Under the pieces are notes generated by a model. That model saw only the letters and a program-made list of their open reading frames with translations, was not told the DNA's origin and ran no database searches. Positions 48,115 through 64,000 of a DNA stretch of 64,000 nucleotides are shown one piece after another; the first letter of the stretch is position 1, and each line of letters begins with the position of its first letter. Where the stretch lies: the NCBI GenBank assembly GCA_017436675.1, contig JAFSCS010000001.1:9472-73471 (forward strand). The letters are read 5' to 3'. A program made the translations under genes and the position numbers. Source of the stretch: Clostridia bacterium. Lineage in GTDB: Bacteria > Bacillota > Clostridia > Oscillospirales > CAG-382.

Positions 48115-48139
48115 TTTACTTTATATTCCTTATTTTTAT

Positions 48140-49312
48140 TTAGAAATAGCTTACCTTTATACGCTTGCCCATTTTTGTCAAGCAATCTGCAAGCTCGTCA
48201 ACAAGTCGCATTTTGATATTAAAGCTGATCGGAAGATCGGGGTTTTGATGTGCGGGGTTTACTGCCCGTCCAACGAAGAAATTGATATCTGTCGCTTCCT
48301 CAAAAAGAAGTCTCGCGATCATTGACGCGCCATCACGGCCGCAGCTCCATTTCGAATAATTGATATTTTCACCAATATGATCCTTCGCATATTCGAGGAC
48401 CTTATTTATTGTAATAACACCCTCGGTGACGAGGTCAACACCCTCGATGGTCGCTATCGGCGGGATCGCGGGATCAGGATAATCGAGAACGGGAACAAGC
48501 TTTTTGCCGAGATACTTCGCCGCGATAGACGAGGTCGTTCCCCCGCAGACGATATGCTTTCCTTCCTTCGAGAAGAAGAGCGACATCATCTTGTCACAGT
48601 CATTACTGTTCGAGGGCGGCCCGATCATCAAGCTCATCGGCTCTCTTTTTCTGATGCGCACCGTGCAAATAGTCGTGTCATCACCCGGCATTCCGCCATA
48701 GAGACGATAGCACTCGTCGAGAAGTATCGTCGTCAAGGTCTTTGCGGTGAAGCCAACGCTATAAAACGTCTCCATATACGAGATGATATCGGGGCGTTCC
48801 CAACCGAAGTTGTGGGTGATCCCAACACCTGCATGGATAGCACCGTCGCTCATCAAAATAAAAACGTCGTTTTCCTTCAGCTTTATTCTTGAACGATAGA
48901 TCGTTTTCCCGTCGATATTTATCTGTGTTTTCGGGATCTCGAGGTTTGCACCGTCTCGAAGCAAGATAACGTGGGGGTTGTCATATTGGAATATTTCAGC
49001 CTCCTCGTTATTGATAATACGCATTATCGTGAACGTGGAATATGCAACTCCTCTGACAGAACACACGGGAAGCGTTTGCGCTATTGCGGAAACACACTCC
49101 TCTATCTTCATATTTTCTGCCATCATTGTCGAGATTATCTTTGCCGTCAAGCTCGATAGGATATTAGCCTTAACGCCGCTTCCGAGACCGTCCGCAAGAA
49201 CGATGACTGACGAGTTATCATCCTGCTCTACTATCTCGACGTGATCGCCGCAAAGCTGTTCGCCGTATTTGAATAGACTACGGTAGCCGATATCGGCACA
49301 AAGGTCATTCAT
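48140..49312 (-). CDS. SpoIIE/PP2C-family protein serine/threonine phosphatase
   Basis: 'GDHVEIVEQDDNSSVIVLADGLGSGVKANILSS' and 'DVFILMSDGAIHAG', plus a ~170-aa C-terminal domain of unknown function. Confidence 0.85.
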   Translation of the reverse strand: MNDLCADIGYRSLFKYGEQLCGDHVEIVEQDDNSSVIVLADGLGSGVKANILSSLTAKIISTMMAENMKIEECVSAIAQTLPVCSVRGVAYSTFTIMRIINNEEAEIFQYDNPHVILLRDGANLEIPKTQINIDGKTIYRSRIKLKENDVFILMSDGAIHAGVGITHNFGWERPDIISYMETFYSVGFTAKTLTTILLDECYRLYGGMPGDDTTICTVRIRKREPMSLMIGPPSNSNDCDKMMSLFFSKEGKHIVCGGTTSSIAAKYLGKKLVPVLDYPDPAIPPIATIEGVDLVTEGVITINKVLEYAKDHIGENINYSKWSCGRDGASMIARLLFEEATDINFFVGRAVNPAHQNPDLPISFNIKMRLVDELADCLTKMGKRIKVSYF

Positions 49313-50981
49313 CGGTCATACTCTCCTTCAGCTTTGTTAGAGCGATCTTTGTTTCTGCCGCCGTTTCACCGAGAAGAAGCGCGATCTCTTGGACGATACG
49401 CATCTGCTTATCAACGACCTTATCGGCTATCTCAACGGTTTTTCTGTTGATGAGCTCCTTGCGCTCGTGCTCGTCGACCTGCTCGGTAACGTCACGCATT
49501 ATGCACATTATGACCTTAAACTCGTGATCATAGATGATAGTTTCGTCAACGTATTTCTTGTATTCAGCGAGATAAGTTCTTCTGTCGCGGATGCTTGCGC
49601 CTGTGTTTTTGACGTCCATAAAATCCTTCGGATCCATAATTCGAATCACCTGTTCTCCGAGGACGTCGCTCGCACTTCTGATATTCATAATACGACAAGC
49701 GGCTTTATTAATTTGTTGTACCTCGAAATCCTCGTTGAGTACGAGTATTCCGTTCGGTGTGTTGTTGATGATATTATCGGAGAAGCTTTCTGCTTTATCC
49801 TTCAAGAACGGCAAACACATAGTCATATCTGCTTTTCCTTGGAAGATCGCGACCGCTTTTTTACGGCAGGTGTCATAGCCGCAGCAGCCACAGTTAAGCT
49901 CATCCTCTTTTCTTGTTTTACCCATTTTGCGAAGTATCGACATTATTTCGCTTTCTGTCGGTACTGACGCCTTACTGAGTATTTGTGTCAGATCCTTATG
50001 AAGCTCCTTTTTCGAAGCTTGGTCAACGGGAAAATCCTTCGTTCCCGCATATTTATTTACTGCGATGGTATTGCTGAGCGGAGAACGGTGATATTTTTCC
50101 ATAACGGGACCACCGATACAGCTACCCGCACATACGGACATTTCAATAAAGCAATTCGAAACGCGTCCGGCACGGATATCCTCCAATGCGGCGATACAGT
50201 TCTCTATTCCATCAACGGAGAGATAAGTATATCCTTCCTCGCGAACGTCCATCGTCTTCAAAATGCCGCCGGACGTCGGGAAGAGTCTTGCCTTGCTCTC
50301 TTCGATATTCTCGTGCTCGGGCTCGAGGGTTATTCCTTCACGCTCGAACCATTTTGAAAGCTCCTCGAAGGTCAAGACCGCGTCGGTTATTCCTTTATAA
50401 TAATCAGCCTCGTCCTTTTTCGCAACGCACGGACCGATGAATACCGTTTTTGCGTTGGGATAACGCTTTTTGATATCGAGGCAATGTGCCTGCATAGGCG
50501 AAACTACGGGTGCAAGGAAAGGAAGTGTATCGGGGAAATGCTTTTGGATCAGCAAATTCGCTGAATGGCAGCATGATGAGATAAGTATTGACGGCTTCTC
50601 CTCGTGAAGAATACGTTGATACTCGTTTTTGACGATCGTAGCTCCGACAGCAGTTTCCTCAGCCATAAAGAATCCGAGCTTTTTGAGTGCTTTTTCAAGT
50701 GCGCGGATGCCGATACCATCATAATTTGCAACAAAAGAAGGTGCAATGCTTGCGATAACGGGTTCACCCGACATCAGAAGCACCTTAACAGTCTCGGTTC
50801 CGTCAGCTATCTCCTTCGCGTTTTGGGGACATACAACGAAGCATTGTCCGCAAAGGATACATTCGTTTCCTACGATATTCGCTTGACCTGCTGAAAATCT
50901 GATCGATTTTACGGGGCAATGACGAATACATTTATAACAGTTTTTACAGTTTGATTTTTTTAATCTCAGAAATTCAGCCAT
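49305..50981 (-). CDS. Sensory-type [FeFe]-hydrogenase-like protein with PAS domain (HydS/HfsB-like)
   Basis: N-terminal 4Fe-4S motifs ('CKNCYKCIRHCP', 'CILCGQCFVVCP') and variant H-cluster motifs 'SSCCHS', 'GPCVAKKDE' and 'EMSVCAGSCIGGP'. An extra 'CGCCGYDTC' cluster motif is followed by a PAS-like C-terminus. Confidence 0.8.
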   Translation of the reverse strand: MAEFLRLKKSNCKNCYKCIRHCPVKSIRFSAGQANIVGNECILCGQCFVVCPQNAKEIADGTETVKVLLMSGEPVIASIAPSFVANYDGIGIRALEKALKKLGFFMAEETAVGATIVKNEYQRILHEEKPSILISSCCHSANLLIQKHFPDTLPFLAPVVSPMQAHCLDIKKRYPNAKTVFIGPCVAKKDEADYYKGITDAVLTFEELSKWFEREGITLEPEHENIEESKARLFPTSGGILKTMDVREEGYTYLSVDGIENCIAALEDIRAGRVSNCFIEMSVCAGSCIGGPVMEKYHRSPLSNTIAVNKYAGTKDFPVDQASKKELHKDLTQILSKASVPTESEIMSILRKMGKTRKEDELNCGCCGYDTCRKKAVAIFQGKADMTMCLPFLKDKAESFSDNIINNTPNGILVLNEDFEVQQINKAACRIMNIRSASDVLGEQVIRIMDPKDFMDVKNTGASIRDRRTYLAEYKKYVDETIIYDHEFKVIMCIMRDVTEQVDEHERKELINRKTVEIADKVVDKQMRIVQEIALLLGETAAETKIALTKLKESMTDE

Positions 50982-51007
50982 AATGCTTCTCCTGATTGGT
51001 GCGAATT

Positions 51008-51250
51008 TTATTTCAAATTGGGAAGAACGGAGTTGTTGAAGAATTCTTCAACCGTTTCCGGTGATACGGAATATACCTCTTCATCTATGAGGACGCATAC
51101 TCCTTTTTGACATTGACCGACGCAAAACGTTCCCGAAAGCTCGATCTTATCACCGATGTTATTTTCGGCTATAAGAGCTTGGAGCTTTTCAAGAACTTGG
51201 CGTGAGCCTTTAACGTGGCATGAGCTTCCTATACAAATTGTAATTTTCAT
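51008..51250 (-). CDS. Thioredoxin-like [2Fe-2S] ferredoxin (NuoE/HfsA-like)
   Basis: 80 aa: 'MKITICIGSSCHVKGS...GTFCVGQCQKG'. Confidence 0.7.
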   Translation of the reverse strand: MKITICIGSSCHVKGSRQVLEKLQALIAENNIGDKIELSGTFCVGQCQKGVCVLIDEEVYSVSPETVEEFFNNSVLPNLK

Positions 51251-51275
51251 TGTTTCGTGCCTTTCTTTATTGTCG

Positions 51276-51914
51276 TTATTCTTGTGAGTCAGTCAGCTTT
51301 TCACTCAGATGCTTTGAGAGCATCGCCAATGAAAAAGCCATATTTTCGTTTTGTACCAATACGTTTTCGGGTACCTTCAGATGTACGGGTGAAAAATTCC
51401 AAATGCCGAGCACTCCCGCCTCCACGAGCATATCGCAAACCTCTTGTGCGGCAAACGCGGGTACGGTAATTATACCGAGTCGGATCTTCATCCTGCGGCA
51501 AAGGTTATCAAGCTTGCTGATATCCATTACCTGTTTCCCGTTGATCATCTCTCCCAATTTATTGTTATCAAGGTCAAAAGCCGCTACGATATCAAGTCCT
51601 TGCGCAGCAAACCCATCGTATGACAACAATGCTCTGCCGAGATTTCCCGCACCGACGATAACTGCATTTTGCGTATTGTCATAGCCAAGGAACTGTTCTA
51701 TATCATATATAAGCTCTTTTGTTATATAGCCGATTTTAGGACGTCCGCGCTGACTGATCGACGCGAGGTCCTTGCGTACTTGGACGTCGTTGAGGCTCAG
51801 CGCTTGAGCGATTATGGTTGCCGATACATTGGAGAGAGGGTCTCTTTGCTTCAAGAAATTGAGATATAGCGGAAGGCGTTGCAAAGTTTGTTTGGAAACT
51901 GCTTTCTTTTCCAT
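51276..51914 (-). CDS. rex: Redox-sensing transcriptional repressor Rex
   Basis: 'SKQTLQRLPLYLNFLK' (winged helix) and the Rossmann motif 'AVIVGAGNLGRALLSY'. The track start is TTG 51923; ATG 51914 with RBS AAGGAG is preferred. Confidence 0.9.
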   Translation of the reverse strand: MEKKAVSKQTLQRLPLYLNFLKQRDPLSNVSATIIAQALSLNDVQVRKDLASISQRGRPKIGYITKELIYDIEQFLGYDNTQNAVIVGAGNLGRALLSYDGFAAQGLDIVAAFDLDNNKLGEMINGKQVMDISKLDNLCRRMKIRLGIITVPAFAAQEVCDMLVEAGVLGIWNFSPVHLKVPENVLVQNENMAFSLAMLSKHLSEKLTDSQE

Positions 51915-51969
51915 TTTTCGCAACTCCTTTTTTATTTCTCCGCCCTTTCGGGCGGAGATGATGAACGTT

Positions 51970-53229
51970 TTAGAACAATATTATTAAAAATTGTGATACG
52001 AGCACGACAGCGATGAGCGCTATCGGGTAGGTTGCCGCATATGCGGAAGCAACGTCCTCAGTTCCCGCAACACCGATGAGTGTTCCGAGAGCGGGTGTGC
52101 TCGTCATACCGCCCGTGATCGAGCCTAAGTTGTTGAGAAGGCTGAGCTTGAGGACGTATTTTGCGAACAAGAATCCGATTATCAACGGAGCTATCGTCAT
52201 AATGATACCGTATACGAAATACATTACGTCGAAGTTTTCAACGAACTCTGCGCCACCGGGGATACCTGCTCCAACGAGGAACAACACGAGCCCGAGCTCA
52301 CGGAAGAGCTTGAGTGTGCTTGATGCAGGCATAATATTTACTTTGCCGATGCGAGAGAAGTGTCCCATTACGAGACTCACGAGCAAGCATCCGCCCGTTG
52401 TTGTGAGCGAGAAGCACGTTCCGCTGAGTCCGTCGCCCGAAAGCGGAATCTTTATTTGTCCGAGAACGGTTCCGAGTAATGCCGCGAGAGAAAACGCCGC
52501 GATACCCATATGGTCGATCTCGAAGAGCTTTCCTGTGAAGCCTTTCTTTTCGTCTTCTTCTTTTATCACGAGCTTTGCGCGTTCCTCGTCCATATTAGCT
52601 TTTGTGAGCTTCGGGATGAGTTGAACGAACAATACGACGCCGATAACGCCGAAGATATATGCGATACCGTGACCTACGGACACGAGAGCTTGGTATTGCT
52701 CTGCAACTGTTGCTTTAGCCGCGGAGAACGCAGGAGTAGATGTGAGTGAGCCTGAGAGAAGGCCAACGATCATCGCAACGAAGCCGTCTTGATCCTCGAT
52801 CGTTCCGCCGTATCCGACTACCTCGCCCAAGCCGATACATCCGGCTGCGGAAAGTCCGCCCGCGAGGATGATTATCAAGCCTAAAAGAACGTAGGATTTG
52901 AAGTTTCTTTTGAAGTTTCCGAAAAATTTCGGACCTGCGATGAAGCCGACCGACGTTACGAAGAGAACGAGTCCGAAGCTTTCGATCAAAGAAAGTCCGC
53001 TTGAGAAGTCGAAGGGCTTTGATGATGCAAAGAAGATGAGTCCATCGTCTCCGACGCTGAAGCAAAGTGCTCCAACGAGAAGCGCGATAATAAATACTCC
53101 CGCATCACCGAGGGATATCCCTTTTACAGTAACTCTGCCGAGGACGTATCCGCCCATCAATACGGCAAAAACTACGAAAAGGAGTGTTGATATATTGCTA
53201 ATGGAGATAACTCCGCCAAATAAACTCAT
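51970..53229 (-). CDS. AAE-family (aspartate:alanine exchanger / YidE-YbjL / SucE-like) permease
   Basis: 419 aa made of two homologous ~5-TM halves joined by a charged linker 'KLVIKEEDEKKGF'. The glycine-rich helices are typical of Asp-Al_Ex domains. I see no TrkA-C domains. Confidence 0.65.
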   Translation of the reverse strand: MSLFGGVISISNISTLLFVVFAVLMGGYVLGRVTVKGISLGDAGVFIIALLVGALCFSVGDDGLIFFASSKPFDFSSGLSLIESFGLVLFVTSVGFIAGPKFFGNFKRNFKSYVLLGLIIILAGGLSAAGCIGLGEVVGYGGTIEDQDGFVAMIVGLLSGSLTSTPAFSAAKATVAEQYQALVSVGHGIAYIFGVIGVVLFVQLIPKLTKANMDEERAKLVIKEEDEKKGFTGKLFEIDHMGIAAFSLAALLGTVLGQIKIPLSGDGLSGTCFSLTTTGGCLLVSLVMGHFSRIGKVNIMPASSTLKLFRELGLVLFLVGAGIPGGAEFVENFDVMYFVYGIIMTIAPLIIGFLFAKYVLKLSLLNNLGSITGGMTSTPALGTLIGVAGTEDVASAYAATYPIALIAVVLVSQFLIILF

Positions 53230-53266
53230 TTTTGAAATTCCTTTCTATAGTAGGGCGCGACCGAGA

Positions 53267-54856
53267 TTATTTGTTTCTGTAATCGGGCAAAAGCATCGGA
53301 GAAACTGCACCGGAGCAATATTCCTCTGCCTCTTTTGCAAACTCGTCAACGTGGTTGAGTGTGAGATTTCCGACTGTCGTGTTCTTTGCGGCAGCAGCAG
53401 CGTTTTTACCTGCATTTCTACCGAATACGATTATATCGAGCAAGGAGTTACCCATAAGTCTGTTGCGTCCGTGGATACCGCCAACGACCTCGCCTGCTGC
53501 GAAGAGGTTTTTGATATTCGTGGTCATACAATCCTTTGTGATGTCAAGACCACCGTTTTGATAGTGGAGCGTCGGATAGACGAGGATCGGTTCTTTTCTG
53601 ATATCGATTCCGTATTTTTCGAACATACGAAGCATTGCGGGGATACGTTTTTCGATCGTACCTTCGCCGCCCTTCATTTCGATCATCGGAGTGTCGAGCC
53701 AAACGCCCTTGCCGCTTCCCGTGTCGACACCGTTGTTTCTGTCGGAGCATTCACGAATGATGGATGCCGCGGAAACGTCACGTGTTTCGAGGGGATGCAT
53801 AAACGCTTCGCCGTTTACGTTGATGAGCTTCGCGCCGAGAGAGCGCACCTTTTCCGTTACGAGCGCACCGAAGATCTGCTCGGGGAATGCCGCACCTGTC
53901 GGGTGGTATTGAAGTGTATCGGCGTAGAGGAGCTTTGCACCTGCACGATATGCGATGACGAGACCGTCAGCGGTTGCGCCATAGTGGTTGGAGGTCGGGA
54001 AGCCTTGGTAGTGCATTCTTCCTGCGCCGCCTGTTGCGATAACTACTGTTTTCGCACGAGCGATGAGGATCTCTTCTGTTTCCATATTGAGAAGCACTGC
54101 ACCTGCCGCGTTGCCGTTCTCATCAAGAATGAGCTCGATCGCAGCGGTAAAGTCAACGACGGGGATATTACGGTTGAGCACCTCATCACGAAGCGTTCTC
54201 ATAATTTCCGCACCGGAATAGTCCTTTGCGGCGTGCATACGTTTTCTCGACGTACCGCCACCGTGTGTCGTTACCATTGTTCCGTCTTCTGTTTTATCAA
54301 ATTCAACACCGAGGTCGTTGAGCCATTTGATAGCTTCGGGAGCTTCGTTTACCAACGTGTAGAGAAGCTCGGGTTTAGCAGCGAAGTGACCGCCGCCGAA
54401 TGCGTCGAGGTAGTGGATAGCGGGAGAATCGTTGGGCTTGTCAGCAGCTTGGATACCGCCCTCTGCCATCATTGTGTTAGCGTCACCGATACGAAGCTTT
54501 GTTACGATCATTACGTTAGCGCCTGCCTCGTGAGCCTCGATAGCCGCACTTGAGCCTGCTCCGCCGCCACCGATGACGAGAACGTCAACGTCGTAATCCA
54601 CCTTTGAAAGATCGATGTCTGCCGTATTTATTCTGCTCTTGCCTTGCAAAAGTGCGGCAAGCTCGGTCGGAACCTTTTCACCCTTGTTGGGACCGACGGA
54701 GAGAACGCGGAATTCGTCCGTTTTATAGTCGGGGTGATATGTTTTGAGGAGTGTTTCTTTTTCTTCAGCCGTCATACGTCTGGGCTCAAGCTCAGCGTTA
54801 GCGACTCTGTTTGCTTCGACCTTTTTTATTGATTCAAGCATTTCCTTTGTATACAT
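53267..54856 (-). CDS. Fumarate reductase/succinate dehydrogenase-family flavoprotein (soluble, non-covalent-FAD type)
   Basis: 'DVLVIGGGGAGSSAAIEA', 'ANTMMAEGGIQAA' (no His at the covalent-FAD position), 'LQYHPTG', 'PTLHYQNGGL' and 'GRNRLMGNSLLDIIVFGR'. It carries a ~95-aa N-terminal extension. Confidence 0.75.
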   Translation of the reverse strand: MYTKEMLESIKKVEANRVANAELEPRRMTAEEKETLLKTYHPDYKTDEFRVLSVGPNKGEKVPTELAALLQGKSRINTADIDLSKVDYDVDVLVIGGGGAGSSAAIEAHEAGANVMIVTKLRIGDANTMMAEGGIQAADKPNDSPAIHYLDAFGGGHFAAKPELLYTLVNEAPEAIKWLNDLGVEFDKTEDGTMVTTHGGGTSRKRMHAAKDYSGAEIMRTLRDEVLNRNIPVVDFTAAIELILDENGNAAGAVLLNMETEEILIARAKTVVIATGGAGRMHYQGFPTSNHYGATADGLVIAYRAGAKLLYADTLQYHPTGAAFPEQIFGALVTEKVRSLGAKLINVNGEAFMHPLETRDVSAASIIRECSDRNNGVDTGSGKGVWLDTPMIEMKGGEGTIEKRIPAMLRMFEKYGIDIRKEPILVYPTLHYQNGGLDITKDCMTTNIKNLFAAGEVVGGIHGRNRLMGNSLLDIIVFGRNAGKNAAAAAKNTTVGNLTLNHVDEFAKEAEEYCSGAVSPMLLPDYRNK

Positions 54857-54870
54857 TGTCTTTCTCCTCC

Positions 54871-55545
54871 TTATTTCTCGATCTCACGGTTGTTGTAAAG
54901 CTCTTTCATCTCGGAAACAGGCTTTTGCATCAAGTTTTCGAGAAGCTCTTCAAACGTGCCGTCTTTGATCTCTTGTACTCTTGCTTCAAGGTGCTCGGAC
55001 TTCGGAGCGAGGTATTTTCCGTTGAGACGTCTTGCGAGAAGACCTACTTGGGGATGAGAGATACCTGCAGGGCAACGTGACGAGCAAACGCCGCACATTA
55101 CACAGTCAAAGGACTCTTCTGCGCATTTTTCATACTCGCCTCTTTGAGCGTATGCGATATATTGCATTACGTTGAGACCTTGAGTACAGCTCTTCGTACA
55201 AGCGTTGCATCCGATACAGCTGTATATTTCGGGATAGAGCTGCATCATGATCTGCTCTGTGGGTTTTATTTCGTTGATATCATAAACTTGCTTTACAAGC
55301 GGGAAGAACGGGAGAGTTGCTACGTACATATTCTCCTCGACCTTTGTTTGACAAGCGAGGCAGACCTTGAGCTCTCTGTCGCCTTTAATTCTATATACTG
55401 TTGCACACGCGCCGCAGAATCCGTTTCTGCATCCGCATCCGCGAACGAGACTGTAGCCCGCATATTCCATTGCGCGCATTATCGTCAAGTTGGAGGGAAC
55501 GGAATATTTCTTTCCGAACAAAAATACATTTACCATTTCTGCCAT
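54871..55545 (-). CDS. Fumarate reductase iron-sulfur-subunit-like protein
   Basis: N-terminal [2Fe-2S]-like 'GCGCRNGFCGACATV...CLAC' and two cluster motifs 'CIGCNACTKSC' and 'CVMCGVCSSRCP'. Confidence 0.65.
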   Translation of the reverse strand: MAEMVNVFLFGKKYSVPSNLTIMRAMEYAGYSLVRGCGCRNGFCGACATVYRIKGDRELKVCLACQTKVEENMYVATLPFFPLVKQVYDINEIKPTEQIMMQLYPEIYSCIGCNACTKSCTQGLNVMQYIAYAQRGEYEKCAEESFDCVMCGVCSSRCPAGISHPQVGLLARRLNGKYLAPKSEHLEARVQEIKDGTFEELLENLMQKPVSEMKELYNNREIEK

Positions 55546-55601
55546 TGTTATTTTACTCTCTTACGTCGAAATGACGATATAAGTTCCTTTCTTCGTTTTA
55601 A

Positions 55602-56429
55602 TCAATATTCGTTGGGAAGCTCATCGAGCTCGTCGCATCTGAACACCGGTCCGTCTTTACATACGTACTTCGAGCCGATGTTACAACGTCCGCATTTACC
55701 GACGCCGCACTTCATTTTCAGCTCCATCGTCGTAAACACTTGTGTTTTGTCAAATCCGAGCTCACTGAGTCCTGCAAGTGTGAATTTGATCATTATGGGA
55801 GGTCCGCAGATGATTACCGTTTTATTCGTATCAAATCCGAGCTCCTTAACGTAGTTCGGAACGAATCCAACGTGGCCGTCCCAGCCCTCTTGCTCACGGT
55901 CGATCGTGAGGTGAACGTTTACGCCCTCCTCAACGCACCATTCGTTGATTATCTCCTTATAGTCAACGAGGTCGTCCATACTTCTCGAGCCGTAAACTAT
56001 ATCGATCGTTCCGTAGCTGTCACGATAGTGGCGAACGTAGTTGATAACGGAGCGAAGCGGTGCAAGACCGATACCGCCTGCGATAAAGAGGAGGTTTTTG
56101 CCCTTGAACACCGTATCAACGGGAAATCCGTTTCCATACGGACCGCGGATCGTTACCTGCTGACCGACCTCCATATGATGAAGCCAATCGGTGAGGCATC
56201 CGCATTTCTTTATACTGAATTCCATAAATTCCGTGTTCGTCGGAGATGACGTTATCGAGAACATCGCCTCGCCGACACCGGGGATGGAGAGCATTGCGCA
56301 TTGTCCCGGAATATGCTCAAAAACCTTTTTTCCGTCGGGAGCAACTACTCTGAACGTTTTAACGTCGGGTGTATCGATACGAATATCTGTTACAACGCCG
56401 AGCTTTGGGATCAAAACTTCTTCGATCAT
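55602..56429 (-). CDS. FAD/NAD(P)H-binding [2Fe-2S] oxidoreductase (FlxA / AsrB / sulfhydrogenase-gamma-like)
   Basis: 'LLFIAGGIGLAPLRSV' and C-terminal 'CGVGKCGRCNIG...VCKDGPVF'. The start is set at ATG 56429 (RBS AAGGAG), 2 nt after the upstream stop. Confidence 0.7.
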   Translation of the reverse strand: MIEEVLIPKLGVVTDIRIDTPDVKTFRVVAPDGKKVFEHIPGQCAMLSIPGVGEAMFSITSSPTNTEFMEFSIKKCGCLTDWLHHMEVGQQVTIRGPYGNGFPVDTVFKGKNLLFIAGGIGLAPLRSVINYVRHYRDSYGTIDIVYGSRSMDDLVDYKEIINEWCVEEGVNVHLTIDREQEGWDGHVGFVPNYVKELGFDTNKTVIICGPPIMIKFTLAGLSELGFDKTQVFTTMELKMKCGVGKCGRCNIGSKYVCKDGPVFRCDELDELPNEY

Positions 56430-56431
56430 TT

Positions 56432-57454
56432 TTAGTTTTCTCCTTTCAAGGTCTTCATTACCTTCACGATATTCATCGAGATCGGGCATTTATTGAGGCA
56501 TCTGCCGCATCCGACACAGCCGAACTCACCGCTGTTATTAGCGGGGAAGTATACGAGCTTGTGCATAAATCTTTGGCGGAATCTTTCAAGCTGAGTGAGT
56601 CTGGGGTTGCCGTGCGCCATCTTTGTGAAGTCGGAATACATACAGCTATCCCAGCAACGATATCTTTTTACGCCGTGACCTGTTTCGAAGTCCTTGATAT
56701 CGTAGCATTGACAAGTCGGGCAAACGAAGGTACAAGTACCGCATCCGAGACAGCTCTCGGAAAGAGACGCCCATTTTTCAGAATCGAAGAGCTCCTTCAA
56801 TTTGTCGCCGCCGAAGGAATCGGTATCCAATTTTCCGAGCGGGAGACGATCGAGTATCTTCTTTGTGTTTTCAATTTGTGCATCGACCTCTGTGCGATCG
56901 CACTCTTCAAGCGAAAGCTCGGAAAGAAGTGCATTTCCCTTTTCGGTAACGCCCTCGAGGTAGTAGCAGTCATTTCCCTTCCAAGCGCGGATATCTCCCT
57001 CGGGCTCAGTGGGATCTATTCCGAAGGTCGTGCAGAAGCACGTTTCGGAGGGCTTTTGACAAGCGAGAGAGATCACTATTCCCTTTTCTCTCTTTGCCTT
57101 ATAAAACGTATCAACGGGCTCGGAGAGGAAGACCTTATCGAGAATCGAGAAGCTTCTTACGTCGCAAGCTCTTACACCGAACATCACGAACGGTCTTACC
57201 TCGCGGCGTTCGTCTGTGATCTCGATATTTTTTCCGTCGAGCTTAAAGGACACGATATCCTCGTGCTGCGGGAAGAAGAAATCCTTCGCGCTTCTTACGG
57301 TGTTGAGGTCATCGGAAACTGTTTTTCCTTGCTCCCATTTTTCAAAATACGATTGACCGTCGTTCTTTTTGGTCGGAACAAAAAGGTCATATTTTTCGCT
57401 GATCTTCTCAAAAAGCGAATTTAACTTTTCAAAACTGATCTTTACCATTTTCAT
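56432..57454 (-). CDS. 4Fe-4S dicluster protein (FlxB / AsrA / sulfhydrogenase-beta-like)
   Basis: 'CLGCGTCTFVCPTCQCYD' and 'CVGCGRCLNKCP'; 340 aa. Confidence 0.65.
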   Translation of the reverse strand: MKMVKISFEKLNSLFEKISEKYDLFVPTKKNDGQSYFEKWEQGKTVSDDLNTVRSAKDFFFPQHEDIVSFKLDGKNIEITDERREVRPFVMFGVRACDVRSFSILDKVFLSEPVDTFYKAKREKGIVISLACQKPSETCFCTTFGIDPTEPEGDIRAWKGNDCYYLEGVTEKGNALLSELSLEECDRTEVDAQIENTKKILDRLPLGKLDTDSFGGDKLKELFDSEKWASLSESCLGCGTCTFVCPTCQCYDIKDFETGHGVKRYRCWDSCMYSDFTKMAHGNPRLTQLERFRQRFMHKLVYFPANNSGEFGCVGCGRCLNKCPISMNIVKVMKTLKGEN

Positions 57455-57463
57455 TCCTCCCTA

Positions 57464-58429
57464 TTATTCTTTATCCGTTACCACAGAGGGCTCGGGGTCT
57501 TTTTCGGTGTAGCTTGTGAGCGGACCTCTTGCTTCGGGGTCTTCACCTGCTTGATAATCACCGTAGAGTGTATTGATGTCTTTAATGAACTTGCGGTTGA
57601 GAAGGTGCAAAGGAATTCCTTGGGGGCATACTCTCGAGCACTCGCCGCAGTCCGTACATCTTCCTGCAACGTGGAACGCGCGGATGATGTGGAACATATT
57701 CTCCTCGAAGCTCGTTACGGGTGCTTTGTTAACGTATCCCGAGTTATCGTTATCGAAGATACATTTTTCGCAAGAACAAGCGGGGCACACGTTTCTGCAC
57801 GCATTACAACGAATGCATCTTGAAAGCTCGTTTCTCCAGAATTCGAAGCGCTCGTCTGCCGTCATATTCTCGATCATTTCGACCTCGTCGAAGCGTTTTG
57901 AATCAAGCACCTCGCCCTCGTCTCCGAGAAGCTCGTCGTATGCAACGTGCTTTTTCGATTTGCAGTTCACGCAACGCTCAGCCAAAGCATCTGCACGGTT
58001 TATTTCATATTTATCATAGAGCGTTTCAACGCTGATCTTATCGCCGTCGGACGAAAGAGCGATGATGCCGTCGCCGACAGTTCTTTTGATCTTTTCGATA
58101 TCCACCTTGCCGTCACACGAAACGCCGACAACGTAGACCTTTTCTCTGTTTATCCTATGCTCACTCAAAAGCTGATTAAAGCTATAGGTATCGCAGGGCT
58201 TCAAGAACACGAGCACCTTGCCGTCCTTGTGAGCCTCTTTTATAAGATATTTCGAAAGGTTAGCACCACAGAAATCGTCATAGATAAAGCCGTTATCTAT
58301 CTCCTCTGCGTTTGTGAAGACAGCGGGGGTGATATCATAGCAGAATTCACCCTTTTTCCAGCCTATCACTGCGCGGACTTCTCCGCTTGCCAAAAGCTCT
58401 TTCGCTTTATTTTTCATTACTTCTTGCAT
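57464..58429 (-). CDS. Iron-sulfur protein (FlxC-like)
   Basis: 'CIRCNACRNVCPACSC' and 'CTDCGECSRVCPQG'. A strong GGAGGA RBS precedes ATG 58429. Confidence 0.6.
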   Translation of the reverse strand: MQEVMKNKAKELLASGEVRAVIGWKKGEFCYDITPAVFTNAEEIDNGFIYDDFCGANLSKYLIKEAHKDGKVLVFLKPCDTYSFNQLLSEHRINREKVYVVGVSCDGKVDIEKIKRTVGDGIIALSSDGDKISVETLYDKYEINRADALAERCVNCKSKKHVAYDELLGDEGEVLDSKRFDEVEMIENMTADERFEFWRNELSRCIRCNACRNVCPACSCEKCIFDNDNSGYVNKAPVTSFEENMFHIIRAFHVAGRCTDCGECSRVCPQGIPLHLLNRKFIKDINTLYGDYQAGEDPEARGPLTSYTEKDPEPSVVTDKE

Positions 58430-58851
58430 CTCAGATCCTCCAATCTCTTGTTTTCACCGAGCTTTGTTACTGTGGCAACGAAATCGTTCATCGTAGCCGC
58501 AAATTTTGCGCCCTCTGCCGCAGATACCCACTCGACTCTTGTACGTTCCTTTTCGATCCCGAGGTAATCGAGCATCGAGAAGAGGAGAGTCATTCTTCTT
58601 CTTGCGTAGTAGTTACCTGTTGTATAGTGGCAGTCGCCGGGGTGACATCCGCAGATGATAACACCGTCCGCGCCTCTTTGGAACGCTCTGAGCACGAACA
58701 AGGGGTTTACTCTGCACGAGCAAGGAACACGGATTATTTTTACGTCAGCGGGATAATTCAATCTGTTCGTTCCCGCAAGGTCAGCACCCGCATAGGAGCA
58801 CCAGTTGCAGCAGAACGCGACGATCTTCGGTTTGAATTCGTTTACTTGCAT
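58417..58851 (-). CDS. mvhD: MvhD/FlxD-type hydrogenase iron-sulfur subunit
   Basis: 'IVAFCCNWCSYAGADLAG....YP..VKIIRVPCSCRVNP..VLRAFQRGADGVIICGCHPGDCHY'. Confidence 0.85.
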   Translation of the reverse strand: MQVNEFKPKIVAFCCNWCSYAGADLAGTNRLNYPADVKIIRVPCSCRVNPLFVLRAFQRGADGVIICGCHPGDCHYTTGNYYARRRMTLLFSMLDYLGIEKERTRVEWVSAAEGAKFAATMNDFVATVTKLGENKRLEDLRCKK

Positions 58852-60830
58852 ATTGCATCTACCTCCGCCATGATCTGTTTATTAGAGAAGCCCTTGAGGT
58901 CCATAGCTCCCGAAGGACAGGTTACGGTACAAGCACCGCAGCCTTGACATACCGCATCGTTTACTACTGCTACGCGGCGAACTCTCGTTGTTCTGTCGGG
59001 CATTCTGAACTCTTTATCAACGTAGGATATCGCGTTATACGCGCATACCTTCGCACAGTTCGAGCATCCGTTACACATATTTTCGTCGGAATGTGCAACG
59101 CACGCATTATTTTTCATTTTATCCTTCACGAGAAGACCGATGACCTTCGCTGCTGCCGCACTTGCTTGGGCAACGGTTTCGGGGATATCCTTCGGGCCTT
59201 GACAAGCACCCGAGAGGAAGATACCTGCTGTCGGGCTTTCAACGGGACGAAGCTTCGGGTGAGCCTCGGTGAAGAAGTCGTTTGTGTCCATGCTTGCCGT
59301 CAACATCGTTGCGAGCGGTCTTGCCGTCTTATCGGGCTCGATAGCCGCCGCCAATACGACGAGGTCAGCGTCGATGGTGAGTTGTTCGTTGGAGATGAGG
59401 TCGCTCGCACGAACGATGAGCTTATCTCCCTCGGGGATGACCTTTCCGACCATACCCTTTATGTAATGCACGCCGTATTCTTCAACTGCTCTGCGGTAGA
59501 ACTCATCGAAGTTCTTGCCGGGTGTTCTGACGTCGATATAGAATACGTATACCTCTGTATCGGGGTATTTTTCTCTTGTGAGCATTGCGTGCTTTGCGGT
59601 ATACATACAGCAGATCTTCGAGCAATATGATTTTCCGCATTCTCTTGTATCACGAGAGCCGACGCATTGAACGAAAACGATCTTATGCGGATGCTTTCCG
59701 TCGGAGGGACGAAGCAATTTTCCTGCTGTCGGGCCTGCGGCGTTCGTGAGACGTTCGAATTCAAGCGAGGTAATTACGTCCTTGCTTTGAGAATATGCAT
59801 ATTCGTCATACTTATCGAGCTTTATCGGATTAAATCCTGTTGCAACTACGATAGCACCGTATTTTTCGGTGATAAATTCGTCTTTTTGTGTATAATCGAT
59901 AGCGCCTGCGGTACATACCTTTGAGCAGACACCGCATTTACCTGTTTTGAGCATCGTGCAGTAATCGGCGTCGATGGTCGCTATCTTCGGAACTGCTTGT
60001 GCAAACGGGATATAGATCGCTCTTCTTTGGTCCATTCCGAGATTGAACTCGTTGGGAACACGTTTTTGAGGGCATTTTTCGGTGCAGAGACCGCATCCCG
60101 TACATTTCGTTTCGTCAACGAAACGAGCTTTTCTCTTTATAGTTACCTCGAAGTTACCGACGAATCCCTTTACGCCGCTGACTTCGCTATAGGAATATAT
60201 TTTGATATTCTCGTTTTGAGCAGCATCTACCATTTTCGGTGTGAGGATACAAGCCGCACAGTCGAGTGTCGGGAACGTCTTGTCGATCTGGCTCATCTTA
60301 CCGCCGATGGTCGGGAGCTTTTCGACGATATCTACGGGGAATCCCGCATCCGCGATATCGAGTGCCGTTTGGATACCTGCTATACCGCCGCCGATAACGA
60401 GTGCGCGTTTTACAACGGGAGTCTCACCCGATGTGAGCGGTGCGTTAAGATGCACCTTTGCAACGGCTGTACGAGCGAGGATTATTGCCTTTTCCGTACC
60501 CGTTGCCATATCCTTATGTATCCACGAGCATTGCTCACGTATATTTGCGATCTCAACCATATAGGGATTGAGTCCAACGGATTGCGCCGCTTTTCTGAAC
60601 GTTGCCTCGTGCATTCTCGGTGAGCACGAGCAAACGACGATACCCGTCAATTTATGCTCTTTAATTGCATCTTTGATAATATTCTGACCTGCTTCGGAGC
60701 ACATATATTGATAATCGGTGGAGAACACTACACCGTTTTCGTATTTCATTGCCTCGGCAACCGCTTTTACGTCAACGGTTCCCGCGATATTTGTACCGCA
60801 ATGACATACGAATACACCTATTCTTTGCAT
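58842..60830 (-). CDS. hdrA: Heterodisulfide reductase subunit A-like flavoprotein
   Basis: 'ALVIGGGIAGIQTALDIADAG', an N-terminal 'VFVCHCGTNI', and several ferredoxin-type motifs ('CTGCGLCTEKCP', 'CNGCSNCAKVC', 'CQGCGACTVTCP'). 662 aa. Confidence 0.85.
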   Translation of the reverse strand: MQRIGVFVCHCGTNIAGTVDVKAVAEAMKYENGVVFSTDYQYMCSEAGQNIIKDAIKEHKLTGIVVCSCSPRMHEATFRKAAQSVGLNPYMVEIANIREQCSWIHKDMATGTEKAIILARTAVAKVHLNAPLTSGETPVVKRALVIGGGIAGIQTALDIADAGFPVDIVEKLPTIGGKMSQIDKTFPTLDCAACILTPKMVDAAQNENIKIYSYSEVSGVKGFVGNFEVTIKRKARFVDETKCTGCGLCTEKCPQKRVPNEFNLGMDQRRAIYIPFAQAVPKIATIDADYCTMLKTGKCGVCSKVCTAGAIDYTQKDEFITEKYGAIVVATGFNPIKLDKYDEYAYSQSKDVITSLEFERLTNAAGPTAGKLLRPSDGKHPHKIVFVQCVGSRDTRECGKSYCSKICCMYTAKHAMLTREKYPDTEVYVFYIDVRTPGKNFDEFYRRAVEEYGVHYIKGMVGKVIPEGDKLIVRASDLISNEQLTIDADLVVLAAAIEPDKTARPLATMLTASMDTNDFFTEAHPKLRPVESPTAGIFLSGACQGPKDIPETVAQASAAAAKVIGLLVKDKMKNNACVAHSDENMCNGCSNCAKVCAYNAISYVDKEFRMPDRTTRVRRVAVVNDAVCQGCGACTVTCPSGAMDLKGFSNKQIMAEVDAICK

Positions 60831-60845
60831 CTTCTTCTCCTCCTG

Positions 60846-61235
60846 TTACTTACTGTATTTTCTGAACGCCGTGACGATAGCCTGTTGCGGAAGGTCCTCG
60901 TCCAAAAGATCGGGGATCATATCTGCTTTGAGGTGGTTTTCGCCTTGCTTTCTGATCTTTGCAACTCTTACCGCTTCGATGAATTTCGCCGGCTCAACAC
61001 CGCGAGGGCATCTTTCGACACAAGCGAAGCAGGAAAGACATTTATATATGGAATCGGTATTCATAAGCGGCTCAATGTCGCCCTTCTCTACCATATACAC
61101 GAACTGATGGGGTTTATATTCCATCTCGTTACCGTTGGGGCAGGTTGCGGTACATTTTCCGCATTTCATACATTTTTTCGGATCGACGCCTGCGCTTCTG
61201 ATCACGTTTTCTTTCAAATTGTTGGAAAAGCTCAT
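60846..61235 (-). CDS. hdrC: Heterodisulfide reductase subunit C-like 4Fe-4S protein
   Basis: 'CMKCGKCTATCP' and 'CLSCFACVERCP'; 129 aa. Its ATG overlaps the hdrB stop (ATGA). Confidence 0.7.
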   Translation of the reverse strand: MSFSNNLKENVIRSAGVDPKKCMKCGKCTATCPNGNEMEYKPHQFVYMVEKGDIEPLMNTDSIYKCLSCFACVERCPRGVEPAKFIEAVRVAKIRKQGENHLKADMIPDLLDEDLPQQAIVTAFRKYSK

Positions 61236-62023
61236 CAGTTTTCTCCTTTCACACCTAACGCCTCGGCAAGAAGCTCGGTGAAATACTTCACAGGAAGCTC
61301 TACAGCACCGTTTTTATTGAGGTTATAGAGGCAAAGCGGGCAAGCGGTTATAATTTCTTCCGCGCCGTTTTTCTCTGCGCTCTCCATAACGAGTGTGCTT
61401 TTCTTTATCGCGTTATTTTTGTCCTCGAGCGCGATATATCCACCGCAGCATTCGTTTCTGTAGGGATATACGACGGGCTCACCGCCGATCGCTCTGATGA
61501 AATCCTCGATGATGGTCGGGTTCTCGGGGTTATCCATTGCCATTATCTTCGAGGGACGGAGAAGCAAGCATCCGTAGTATGCGGCAACCTTCTTTCCACC
61601 GAGGGGATTCACTACCTTTTCCTTGAGCTTATCAAATCCGACAACGTCACGAAGCAGCTCGAGAAAATGGATGACCTTCGTTTCGCCGTTATAGGGCTCT
61701 TCATCCTTCATATAGTTATGTACTCTGTTTATCATATCCTCATTTGTAGTCATATCGTTGTTGACTTGCTTGAGAACGTTGTGACAAGCGGAGCAAAGAG
61801 TTACGAGATCCTGTCCCTTCTCTTTAGCGGCAGCGAGCGCGCGGACGGAAGAAAGCTTCGAAGCGATCTCATCCTTTGCCATACTGTATGCACCGCCGCA
61901 GCATTGCCAGTTTTCAAGCTCTACGAGGTCTATTCCGAGCGCCTCAGCGCTGAGTCTTGCATATTTGTCCAGCTCCTTCGCCTTAGTTTTAAGCGTACAG
62001 CCGGGATAATAACTGAATTTCAT
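61235..62023 (-). CDS. hdrB: Heterodisulfide reductase subunit B-like CCG-domain protein
   Basis: Two cysteine-rich CCG motifs, 'WQCCGGAYS...LCSAC' and 'NECCGGYI...ACPLC'. Confidence 0.8.
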   Translation of the reverse strand: MKFSYYPGCTLKTKAKELDKYARLSAEALGIDLVELENWQCCGGAYSMAKDEIASKLSSVRALAAAKEKGQDLVTLCSACHNVLKQVNNDMTTNEDMINRVHNYMKDEEPYNGETKVIHFLELLRDVVGFDKLKEKVVNPLGGKKVAAYYGCLLLRPSKIMAMDNPENPTIIEDFIRAIGGEPVVYPYRNECCGGYIALEDKNNAIKKSTLVMESAEKNGAEEIITACPLCLYNLNKNGAVELPVKYFTELLAEALGVKGEN

Positions 62024-62094
62024 TCAATACCTCCGATTATTTTTCAAAAACTTTTTTGAATGTATTAAACTAATTTGATCTTATATTCAAAATA

Positions 62095-62459
62095 CAATCT
62101 GTTTTAAGCTTGGAATTTTCCGGTGTCGAACTCTTTGTTCGACCGAAATGGGGTCGGGTCCCATTTCGAGGGAATTTCGCTTTGCAATCGCACTGTGTTT
62201 TTATTGGTACAATATACAATCTGTTTTATGCTTGGAATTTTCCGGTGTCGAACTTTTAGTTCGACCGAAATGGGGTCGGGTCCCATTTCGAGGGAAATTC
62301 GCTTTGCAATCGCACTGTGTTTTTATTGGTACAATATACAATCTGTTTTAAGCTTGGAATTTTCCGGTGTCGAACTTTTAGTTCGACCGAAATGGGTCGG
62401 GTCCCATTTCGAGGGAAATTCGCTTTGCAATCGCACTGTGTTTTTATTAGTACAATATA
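62095..62459. repeat. 3 x 122-bp near-identical tandem repeat
   Basis: Copies start at 62095, 62217 and 62339 and differ at only about 8 positions in total, including one 1-nt deletion. Each copy carries the palindromes GTCGAAC-N5-GTTCGAC and CGAAATGGG-N6/7-CCCATTTCG. Confidence 0.95.
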
Positions 62460-62469
62460 ACTATTGCAA

Positions 62470-63846
62470 TTATACCATTTGCTCGGGGTGGAAGACCTCG
62501 TCGAACTTCTCTGCGGTGAGGAATCCGAGCGCAACACAAGCTTCCTTGAGCGAGATATTCTCTTTATATGCCTTCTTCGCTGTCTTTGCGGCGTTTTCAT
62601 AACCGATATAGGGGTTGAGCGCCGTTACAAGCATCAAGGAATTGTGGAGATTGTGGTGCATTTTTTCTTTAATAGCCTTAATTCCGACTGCGCAATTGTT
62701 GTTAAACGAAACGATCGATTCAGCGAGGAGACGTGCGGATTGCAAGAAGTTGTAGCTGCAAACGGGCATAAACACGTTGAGCTCAAAGTTACCTTGTGAT
62801 GCCGCCATACCGACTGCAACGTCGTTACCCATAACCTGCACTGCAACCATCGTTACTGCCTCACACTGTGTCGGGTTCACCTTGCCGGGCATAATGGAGG
62901 AGCCGGGCTCGTTTTCGGGGATCGTGATCTCACCGAGGCCGTCGCGAGGACCGCTTGCGAGCCAACGAACGTCGTTTGCGATCTTCATCATATCTGCCGC
63001 AAGTCCTTTGAGTGCGCCGTGTGCGAACACCATCTCATCCTTCGATGTGAGCGCGTGGAATTTATTTTCTGCTGTCTTAAAATTCTTTCCCGTGATCTCG
63101 GAAACCGCCTCAGCGACCTTAACGTCAAAGCCCTTCGGAGCGTTGAGCCCCGTTCCTACAGCCGTGCCGCCGAGCGCCAACTCCTTGAGCTCGTCAGCAG
63201 CAAGAAGAATGAGCTTTCTGTCCTTTTCAAGACTGCTTCTCCAACCGCTGATCTCTTGCGAGAACGTGATGGGGGTTGCGTCTTGGAGGTGTGTACGACC
63301 GCTCTTTACGATCCCTTCGTTTTCCTTCTCGAGACGCTTGAAGGTGTCGATGAGGAGATCGATCGCGGGGATGAGCTTATCCTCGATCATCAAAACTGCG
63401 CTGATGTGCATTGCCGTCGGGAACGTATCGTTGGAGGATTGGCTCATATTGATATCGTCGTTGGGGTGGAGAAGCTTTTTGCCTGCTATCTCGTTACCTC
63501 TGTTGGCGATTACCTCGTTGGCATTCATATTGGATTGTGTGCCGCTTCCCGTTTGCCATACAACGAGCGGGAAATGGTCGTTGAGCTGACCTGCGATGAC
63601 CTCATCACAAGCCTTGCTTATTGCATTCAATTTTTCTTCAGTCATTTTTTCGGGCTTGAGAGCGCTGTTTGCGATAGCAGCCGCCTTCTTCAAGATACCG
63701 AATGCGTGAGTGATCTCACGGGGCATCGTCTCGATGCCAACTCCGATGCGGAAGTTTCCTTTACTTCTTTCTGTTTGTGCCGCCCAATATTTGTCGGCAG
63801 GTACGAGCACCTCGCCCATTGAATCGTGTTCTGTGCGAAATTCCAT
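62470..63846 (-). CDS. fumC: Class II fumarate hydratase
   Basis: '[28 protein letters not shown]' and the signature '[15 protein letters not shown]'. The track start at 63864 is TTG; ATG 63846 with RBS GGAAGGA aligns with FumC N-termini. Confidence 0.95.
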
Positions 63847-63939
63847 TATATTTATTCCTTCCAAAAGTAGATTTTTATTTTATATTATTTCGTGACAGTG
63901 CCTTGATGCTGAAAACACCAAGGCAGTCGAGCTTCTATA

Positions 63940-63999
63940 TTAGATATCGAGTCCTTTTATTAAGTCTTTGAGAGTGTTTGCACTCTTGTGGAGAAGCGC
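63940..63999 (-). CDS. 3' end of an unidentified gene running off the window
   Basis: The open minus-strand frame ends '...ALLHKSANTLKDLIKGLDI*' with a TAA at 63942-63940, followed by a hairpin at ~63906-63932. Confidence 0.3.
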   Translation of the reverse strand, partial: ALLHKSANTLKDLIKGLDI

Positions 64000-64000
64000 G

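Follow-up and report, generated by a model that had tools for sequence, protein, structure and literature searches.

A clostridial hdr-flx-frd "succinate operon" as a candidate cytoplasmic, electron-bifurcating, NADH-dependent fumarate reductase

Described relatives of the clostridial succinate operon

Pseudoclostridium thermosuccinogenes carries a "succinate operon," CDQ83_RS03315-65, in which a gene for fumarate hydratase is joined by a seven-gene Flx-Hdr set, two genes for a fumarate reductase, and one for a putative succinate transporter; it is co-regulated and up-regulated during succinate production, and coupling of fumarate reduction to ferredoxin reduction via Flx-Hdr has already been proposed for it (PMC7282089). 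Consistently with ferredoxin coupling, H2 abolishes succinate formation in this organism (PMC7282089). Here, we analyzed an operon with the same gene series and order, and open to the same hypothesis, in a 64,000-nt stretch of DNA (the window) from an uncultured gut Clostridia metagenome-assembled genome (MAG; CAG-382; GCA_017436675.1, contig JAFSCS010000001.1, positions 9,472 to 73,471 of the forward strand), the likeness following the paper's description rather than an alignment. Ten open reading frames (ORFs), all found where an earlier note on this DNA had placed them, follow one another on the minus strand between 62023 and 51970 and specify HdrB, HdrC, HdrA, FlxD, FlxC-, FlxB-, and FlxA-like proteins, an FrdB-like Fe-S subunit, an FrdA-like flavoprotein, and an AAE-family permease. 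On balance, it is probable that they encode a cytoplasmic, anchor- and quinone-free, electron-bifurcating NADH-dependent fumarate reductase. This idea is not new, as it was anticipated in print for P. thermosuccinogenes and, in a related form, for tubeworm symbionts; the value of the window is confirmatory and comparative. What it adds is the finding that synteny is kept widely and strictly across gut Oscillospirales, a distinct flavoprotein clade and architecture (no C-terminal domain, an N-terminal extension, and noncovalent FAD), a modular set of partners (Hdr-Flx, NuoF-like, or none; at one locus, Kor genes accompany the Hdr-linked form), a fusion of FrdB with FrdA that occurs in nature, and a gene of malate dehydrogenase (MDH) type upstream of fumC. 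Relative to P. thermosuccinogenes, the unit in the window runs into rex and a sensory/monomeric hydrogenase cluster, bears an array of 122-bp repeats between fumC and hdrB, and belongs to an uncultured gut host known as a MAG. The succinate operon of P. thermosuccinogenes and the bifurcation idea are reportedly also the subject of a 2019 preprint by Koendjbiharie and van Kranenburg.

FlxABCD-HdrABC of Desulfovibrio vulgaris (Ramos et al. 2015, as relayed in PMC7282089 and PMC6315080) comprises, by that description, the same seven subunit types, relative to which the gene order of the window is inverted (hdrBCA-flxDCBA) and fumarate, reached via FrdAB, takes the place of DsrC or a disulfide as the proposed high-potential acceptor. 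Biochemical proof of an NADH-dependent, ferredoxin-reducing FlxABCD-HdrABC activity with a disulfide acceptor is not given in PMC7282089, PMC6315080, or PMC11636981. In tubeworm symbionts, tfrAB is interleaved with flxABCD-hdrABC and korABCD, and Hdr-Flx has been proposed to feed the fumarate reductase (PMC6315080, PMC11636981). The reductive tricarboxylic acid (rTCA) clusters of these symbionts and of Thioflavicoccus thus combine an FrdAB-like pair with Hdr-Flx, as the window does, and the layout of one relative (L087, see below) is consistent with them; they belong to an autotrophic rTCA cycle with 2-oxoglutarate synthase, whereas the operon in the window would serve fermentative succinate formation. 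According to a 2024 preprint, STRING connects HdrA with Sdh/Frd in R. champanellensis.

Three fumarate reductase types serve as further references. Methanogen TfrAB is likewise soluble and quinone-free with noncovalent FAD, and its CCG module delivers electrons to an SdhB-like Fe-S module. By contrast, the flavoprotein of the window scores 360 bits against a TfrA cut-off of 718, lacks the C-terminal domain, and has an N-terminal extension; the CCG domains are on a separate HdrB, whereas TfrB has CCG fused to the Fe-S subunit; and the donor is presumably NADH via HdrA, not CoM-SH/CoB-SH. By the TfrA score and architecture and by the lack of the TfrB-type CCG fusion, the pair falls outside TfrAB. 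In type-E SdhABE, a CCG protein partners the Fe-S subunit and a second 4Fe-4S cluster replaces 3Fe-4S, as expected for the window, but the proteins of the window score well below the type-E cut-offs (SdhE, 500; SdhA, 1100) and have neither a quinone link nor a Tat-type N terminus, the cluster being cytoplasmic and, as proposed, NADH linked. E. coli FrdABCD provides the closest solved fold (TM 0.72), with identical catalytic residues and 2Fe-2S ligands, but the window lacks the FrdC/FrdD anchor, covalent FAD, 3Fe-4S, and the C-terminal domain, and its enzyme does not belong with the membrane-bound quinol:fumarate and succinate:quinone reductases (types A to D).

Catalytic pair, Hdr-Flx subunits, and proposed electron path

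The candidate catalytic subunit is the 529-aa FrdA-like flavoprotein (53267..54856, minus strand; FAD_binding_2, 250 bits), whose assignment to the FrdA/SdhA superfamily next to an FrdB-like protein was confirmed, together with the three motifs HPTG, HYQNGG, and RLMGNSLLD that the earlier note had picked out. Alignment with E. coli FrdA, SdhA, and NadB and with a bona fide TfrA (P0215; 765 bits, above the cut-off) set H318 (in HPTG), T334/E335, R359, H431, and R466 against H232, T244/E245, R287, H355, and R390 of E. coli FrdA, R359 being the counterpart of the proton-donor Arg287 and R466 that of the substrate-binding Arg390. The four catalytic residues whose loss would have spoken against a fumarate reductase (FrdA H232, R287, H355, and R390) are all present, and the whole set makes up an FrdA/SdhA-type fumarate-reducing active site (HPT His, Thr-Glu, Arg, His, and Arg). 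The catalytic residues are invariant in the flavoprotein family down to 40% identity, T334 nearly so. Asn127 aligns with E. coli FrdA His44, so the His for covalent FAD is indeed missing and, judging from this substitution, the FAD is noncovalent. The protein stops ~40 residues past the FAD domain, which leaves it without the C-terminal helical domain of SdhA/FrdA/TfrA/NadB, and it starts with a conserved ~88-residue extension bearing an HPDY...GxNxGE motif. Its AlphaFold2 model (pLDDT 87, pTM 0.89) is confident, N-terminal extension included, and the top Protein Data Bank fold match of this model is E. coli FrdA (1kf6_A, TM 0.72).

Among curated family models, TfrA scored best (360 bits, cut-off 718; match spanning model positions 6 to 425 of 546), followed by SdhA/FrdA (285), NadB (275, cut-off 453), and flavocytochrome c (223). 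In a neighbor-joining tree of 73 sequences (representatives of an exhaustive HMMER search, E. coli references, and three close relatives; 100 bootstraps), NadB formed a clade in 100/100 replicates with the flavoprotein outside, and placement among L-aspartate oxidases, which the earlier note had named as a possible refutation, did not occur. The flavoprotein family and uncharacterized short forms of ~400 aa grouped together in 100/100 replicates, apart from SdhA/FrdA/TfrA, and the genuine TfrA P0215 was placed in a different clade. The N-terminally extended family alone reached 13% bootstrap, as fragments and the most distant members wander. A NadB identity was rejected on its score, the Gly that replaces the NadB-specific Glu121 in the alignment, the adjacent Fe-S partner, and the position outside the NadB clade.

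The partner gene (54871..55545, minus strand) encodes the 224-aa FrdB-like Fe-S subunit (Fer2_4 plus 4Fe-4S dicluster). Its Cys39, Cys44, Cys47, and Cys65 align with the 2Fe-2S cysteines of E. coli FrdB, and two full CxxCxxCxxxC(P) motifs follow, with no 3Fe-4S signature. Cys151 stands where E. coli FrdB has a Val, so that the 3Fe-4S cluster is expected to be replaced by 4Fe-4S, as it is in TfrB and the type-E enzymes. The protein has no CCG domain and scores 35 bits to TfrB. Its C-terminal tail of ~35 residues (window 54871-55000, residues ~183-224) ends in KELYNNREIEK. Such a tail (...KELYxxREIEK) is common to the two Hdr-linked forms (window; L087 7451-8116) and is missing or different in NuoF-linked and bare forms (a sample of 2 versus 2), which hints that HdrB/HdrC may dock there. 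In one relative, the FrdB-like protein and the flavoprotein are naturally fused in a single chain (P0122, 727 aa, L088 5250-7433), with no hdr/flx in the 5 kb upstream.

Pfam and NCBIfam domain content bore out the identification of the first seven genes, all on the minus strand, as HdrB, HdrC, HdrA, FlxD, FlxC, FlxB, and FlxA. HdrB (61235..62023; 262 aa; Pfam CCG in two copies) has two complete CCG sets (Cys 9, 41, 42, 77, and 80 and Cys 152, 192, 193, 228, and 231) and matches solved HdrB chains over its full length with 128 bits; the SdhE model of type-E fumarate reductase gave 151 bits and the HdrB model 147, both below cut-off. HdrC (60846..61235; 129 aa; 4Fe-4S dicluster domains) scores 65 bits to the HdrC model, its eight Cys forming two CxxCxxCxxxC motifs for a predicted 2x[4Fe-4S]. 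The candidate bifurcating flavoprotein HdrA (58842..60830; 662 aa) aligns through residues 3-659 with 5odc_A, the HdrA of the solved bifurcating Mvh-Hdr complex (702 bits), and scores 800 bits to the HdrA2 model, with whose MvhD-like C-terminal part FlxD/MvhD aligns (58417..58851; 144 aa; PF02662 FlpD, 189 bits). The FlxC-like poly-Fe-S protein (57464..58429; 321 aa) contains 17 Cys and 4Fe-4S dicluster domains, and the FlxB-like Fe-S protein of the AsrA/HydB family (56432..57454; 340 aa; Fer4_22, 106 bits) reaches 140-184 bits with the ShyB, HydB, and AsrA models, under their cut-offs. The FlxA-like NAD(P)H-FAD-[2Fe-2S] protein (55602..56489) combines FAD_binding_6, NAD_binding_1, and DHODB_Fe-S_bind, with 194-225 bits to the AsrB and HydG models. 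By domain content, Cys motifs, and the full-length matches of HdrA and HdrB, all seven subunit types of FlxABCD-HdrABC are encoded together, present and intact.

The tight packing of the operon stood as described for gene spacing, except that overlaps are not confined to 13 nt or less: the longest flxA ORF, which public gene calls also use, overlaps flxB by 58 nt. However, an internal ATG at 56429 lies behind GGAG and 2 nt after the flxB stop, which makes 56429 the likelier start than 56489 and FlxA probably 275 aa long. The operon contains no anchor gene, as claimed before, and no membrane helix was detected in the nine redox proteins by Kyte-Doolittle analysis (no 19-residue window at or above 1.6), whereas the permease shows at least 8 such segments.

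In the scheme that we favor, NADH would be oxidized at FlxA and its electrons passed by FlxB, FlxC, and FlxD to the FAD of HdrA, where each pair would be bifurcated: one electron would go uphill to ferredoxin (Fd) and the other downhill through HdrC and the two noncubane clusters of HdrB. From HdrB, physically associated with the pair, the latter would move directly to the three clusters of the FrdB-like subunit and on to the noncovalent FAD of the FrdA-like subunit, where fumarate would be reduced. The proposed overall reaction is 2 NADH + Fd(ox) + fumarate -> 2 NAD+ + Fd(red, 2 e-) + succinate. Either a hydrogenase, one being encoded just downstream, or Rnf would reoxidize the ferredoxin, and succinate would leave through the AAE permease; together with the upstream lactate dehydrogenase (LDH)-like malate dehydrogenase and fumarase, the operon would constitute the reductive branch from oxaloacetate to succinate. 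Direct HdrB-to-FrdB wiring is preferred here over a thiol shuttle, given that the FrdB-like subunit has no CCG or thiol-oxidizing domain, that no carrier gene lies nearby on the same strand, and that in TfrB, a natural fusion of FrdB and CCG modules, and in type-E SdhE, CCG modules pass electrons to SdhB-type subunits. The HdrB of the window matches the SdhE model as well as it does the HdrB model. Thermodynamics are favorable, as the distance between fumarate/succinate (+33 mV) and NADH (-320 mV) (PMC5861303) leaves ample driving force to reduce ferredoxin.

Should this mechanism prove correct, fumarate would be added to the few high-potential acceptors, crotonyl-CoA and heterodisulfide among them, by which flavin-based electron bifurcation is driven, which would explain succinate formation and energy conservation in cytochrome- and quinone-free Clostridia. 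We give an even chance to the wider proposal that this is a new class of flavin-based electron-bifurcating enzyme, an NADH-dependent fumarate:ferredoxin oxidoreductase in which the noncubane clusters of HdrB have taken on a new role, purely relaying electrons to an SdhB-type subunit without any disulfide chemistry, and through which quinone-free Clostridia of the gut and rumen, e.g., Ruminococcus flavefaciens, would chiefly form their succinate. For these bacteria it would mean extra ATP through Rnf, or H2 from NADH.

Conservation among relatives and competing explanations

More than 8000 protein clusters matched the flavoprotein family, and at least 597 species-level genomes have a relative, with the family concentrated in Oscillospirales of the human, livestock, and poultry gut. 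The scan took one genome per GTDB species, and the best 80 of these at least 597 relatives (75-85% identity) were used; they are gut and rumen Clostridia, including Ruminococcus flavefaciens (L062) and Yeguia hominis, and do not include P. thermosuccinogenes. R. flavefaciens is a classic succinate producer. Loci were compared with the proteins of the window by tblastn, and colinearity was counted where the upstream flank was at least 7.3 kb (59 loci). The block hdrB-hdrC-hdrA-flxD-flxC-flxB-flxA-frdB-frdA is colinear in 58/59 loci, so the co-occurrence of frdAB-like genes with hdr-flx, which had been put forward as a check, is borne out and the arrangement is not a matter of chance. Upstream, fumC is found in 53/57 related loci, and the AAE permease lies directly downstream in 45/68. 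This breadth is relevant to the modeling of succinate, H2, and redox flow through the gut and rumen, and the operon is of relevance to the engineering of thermophilic succinate producers. In three loci filed as Treponema sp., Bacteroides uniformis, and Bacteroidaceae (L020, L071, and L084), the whole clostridial operon is present with 76-83% identity; these are probably mis-binned MAG contigs rather than transfers.

Among more distant relatives, the partners of the catalytic pair change. In L087, the order is korDABC-hdrA-mvhD-hdrC-hdrB-FeS-flavoprotein, the flavoprotein being 57% identical to that of the window, so that an FrdAB-like pair is coupled to Hdr in no fewer than two genomic settings, which differ greatly. 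In L005/L006, a pair with 47% identity is followed by a NuoF-like NADH-binding subunit, with no Hdr; in L005 (9366-12891; GCA_018697835.1), this subunit scores 386 bits to TIGR01959, below cut-off, and the trio is possibly a three-subunit soluble NADH:fumarate reductase, of which we found no description in the literature. The L005 neighborhood also contains cytochrome c, UbiA, and DsrE genes. Because contexts vary in this way, the FrdAB-like pair can be read, from gene arrangement, as a soluble acceptor module joined to different NADH-side modules (Hdr-Flx, NuoF-like, or none).

The proposal of a bifurcating soluble fumarate reductase, made for this DNA in the earlier note, gained support as a hypothesis: every attempt at refutation that could be run in silico came out in its favor. 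Several observations nevertheless weigh against it. The flavoprotein stays under every curated family cut-off, and its substrate is for that reason deduced from residues and context. The permease is missing from one third of the loci, and a close relative (L078) has no hdr/flx within 10 kb and a CitMHS-family transporter upstream instead. Besides the Hdr-free L005/L006 loci, other distant members consist of a bare FeS-flavoprotein pair or an orphan flavoprotein; since such members stand without Hdr, the catalytic pair does not intrinsically need it. A Rex operator search with two consensus patterns and up to 3 mismatches returned matches at a frequency no higher than in shuffles and none in the promoter region, and a scan of 51200-62600 for sigma-70 promoters and intrinsic terminators gave counts at or below shuffle expectation, with no clear promoter. 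No convincing internal terminator appeared in that interval either, a result that says little on transcript structure given the same counts at or below shuffles. Full-text literature searches found no purification, assay, or structure of such a complex, in agreement with the earlier note, which was aware of no characterized example, nor any biochemical, structural, or genetic test of it.

The L005/L006 loci show that a plain NADH-to-fumarate module, made of a homologous pair and a single NuoF-like subunit, exists in the family, and by extension Flx-Hdr might only wire NADH electrons to FrdAB in a nonbifurcating soluble NADH:fumarate reductase that leaves ferredoxin unreduced. We consider this unlikely, as seven-subunit Flx-Hdr with a full-length HdrA (702 bits to 5odc_A) is kept in 58/59 genomes and would be a costly substitute for one NuoF-like subunit, with a driving force of ~350 mV wasted. 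The match of the flavoprotein to TfrA as its best model raises the alternative of two separate enzymes joined by a thiol/disulfide carrier, as in methanogen Tfr, with Flx-Hdr reducing a disulfide (DsrC-like or a low-molecular-weight thiol) and FrdAB reoxidizing the thiol; tubeworm-symbiont models permit a route through a DsrC-like protein (PMC11636981), and PMC7282089 has electrons going to ferredoxin "and thiols." Such a shuttle is quite unlikely here, because the FrdB-like subunit has no CCG or thiol-oxidizing domain, whereas TfrB has a CCG domain of its own, and because no DsrC-like or carrier gene occurs among the 16 same-strand genes. Nor is synthesis of CoM or CoB known from these bacteria.

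It is very unlikely that the flavoprotein acts on a substrate other than fumarate, e.g., L-aspartate or another unsaturated acid, even though it remains below all curated cut-offs in a clade shared with uncharacterized ~400-aa proteins, some records label homologues L-aspartate oxidase, and the AAE family includes an aspartate:alanine antiporter. The upstream fumC is a true fumarase, not an aspartase, and an MDH-type gene precedes it; NadB Glu121 is Gly in the flavoprotein, and NadB has no Fe-S partner; the dicarboxylate-binding and catalytic residues are all invariant; and the carriers are succinate producers. Operation in reverse, as a confurcating succinate dehydrogenase in which reduced ferredoxin pulls succinate oxidation to NADH, would draw on the reversibility in principle of HdrABC-type complexes and would answer a thermodynamic problem that syntrophic propionate oxidizers also meet. 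However, the operon is carried by saccharolytic Clostridia of the gut and rumen, which excrete succinate (R. flavefaciens, P. thermosuccinogenes), a rex gene next to it agrees with a pathway that consumes NADH, and P. thermosuccinogenes up-regulates its operon during succinate production, all of which makes the reverse direction highly improbable compared with bifurcating fumarate reduction.

Flanking genes and minor observations

The gene fumC (62470..63864, minus strand) encodes a 464-aa class II fumarate hydratase, and the earlier assignment of the upstream gene as fumC was upheld, the product being a true class II fumarase (TIGR00979, 704 bits; cut-off 665). An aspartase identity for this lyase (aspartate to fumarate, with an Asp antiporter) was considered and rejected, the fumC model being above and the aspartase models below their cut-offs. 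The final ~60 nt of a further gene of the LDH/MDH family (63941..64000, minus strand) lie within the window, the remainder being past its end. In the identical contigs L001/L002, this gene is found 76 nt upstream of fumC (L002 216-1160) and encodes a 314-aa Ldh_1_N/Ldh_1_C protein, the C terminus of which is matched by the sequence in the window. The product passes the NCBIfam L-LDH cut-off (346 bits; cut-off 339) but has an Arg, within GIARKPGQTRLDL, at the position of LDH Gln102. This position is the established malate/oxaloacetate specificity determinant, at which Arg specifies malate dehydrogenase. Because Arg replaces Gln102, the gene before fumC probably encodes an LDH-like malate dehydrogenase that automatic annotation would misname, and the locus may then be read as mdh-fumC-[hdr-flx-frd]-permease, i.e., a putative reductive branch from oxaloacetate to succinate.

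The 446 nt between fumC and hdrB contain three tandem copies of a 122-bp structured repeat (62088..62459; Tandem Repeats Finder [TRF], 3.1 copies, 96% match). One unit, as RNA, folds into a strong stem-loop structure (-33 kcal/mol, z = -5.7). It has no Rfam match, and an Rfam search at E <= 1 over 51-64 kb gave no hit. Three near-identical strains have 3, 3, and 1 copies (window; L001 2400-2770; L002 2640-2760), and the repeat was not found in 92 other loci. A role as an element for processing or stability is conceivable, as is that of a small mobile repeat.

Downstream of frdA, the last gene of the operon (51970..53229, minus strand) encodes a 419-aa permease, in which the two predicted Asp-Al_Ex halves were recovered (PF06826 in two copies, 169 bits in total), along with TIGR01625, the YidE/YbjL duplication domain (116 bits; cut-off 72). 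The doubled PF06826 places it in the AAE family, with all full-length equivalog models below cut-off, and the genomic context points to succinate as the substrate that this candidate exporter probably carries. The next gene, after 46 nt, is that for the redox-sensing repressor Rex (51276..51923, minus strand; NF003994, 283 bits; cut-off 130), followed at 46678..51250 by a 2Fe-2S thioredoxin-like gene, hydS for a HydS-like sensory [FeFe]-hydrogenase, a PP2C phosphatase gene, and hydA for a monomeric [FeFe]-hydrogenase (TIGR04105, 559 bits; cut-off 450), as assigned with Pfam and NCBIfam. The rex and sensory hydrogenase cluster reported directly downstream was thus recovered, HydS-like, PP2C, and [FeFe]-hydrogenase genes included. 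Because all of them share one strand and no gap exceeds 46 nt, the transcription unit may extend to 46678. All or part of the rex-to-hydA set recurs after the operon in several relatives (e.g., L008, L064, L065, L067, and L072), which suggests that regulation of fumarate reduction is tied to that of H2 formation; a predicted ferredoxin-oxidizing hydrogenase would be encoded beside the putative ferredoxin-reducing enzyme.

Genes for Rnf, quinones, or a further fumarate reductase are absent from positions 1-46 kb of the window, where all genes are of the housekeeping or carbohydrate type. Among them is a methylenetetrahydrofolate reductase gene (MTHFR; 17549-18427; 284 bits), nonadjacent to the hdr genes and 40 kb from them, a placement unlike the Hdr-MetFV arrangement of some acetogens.

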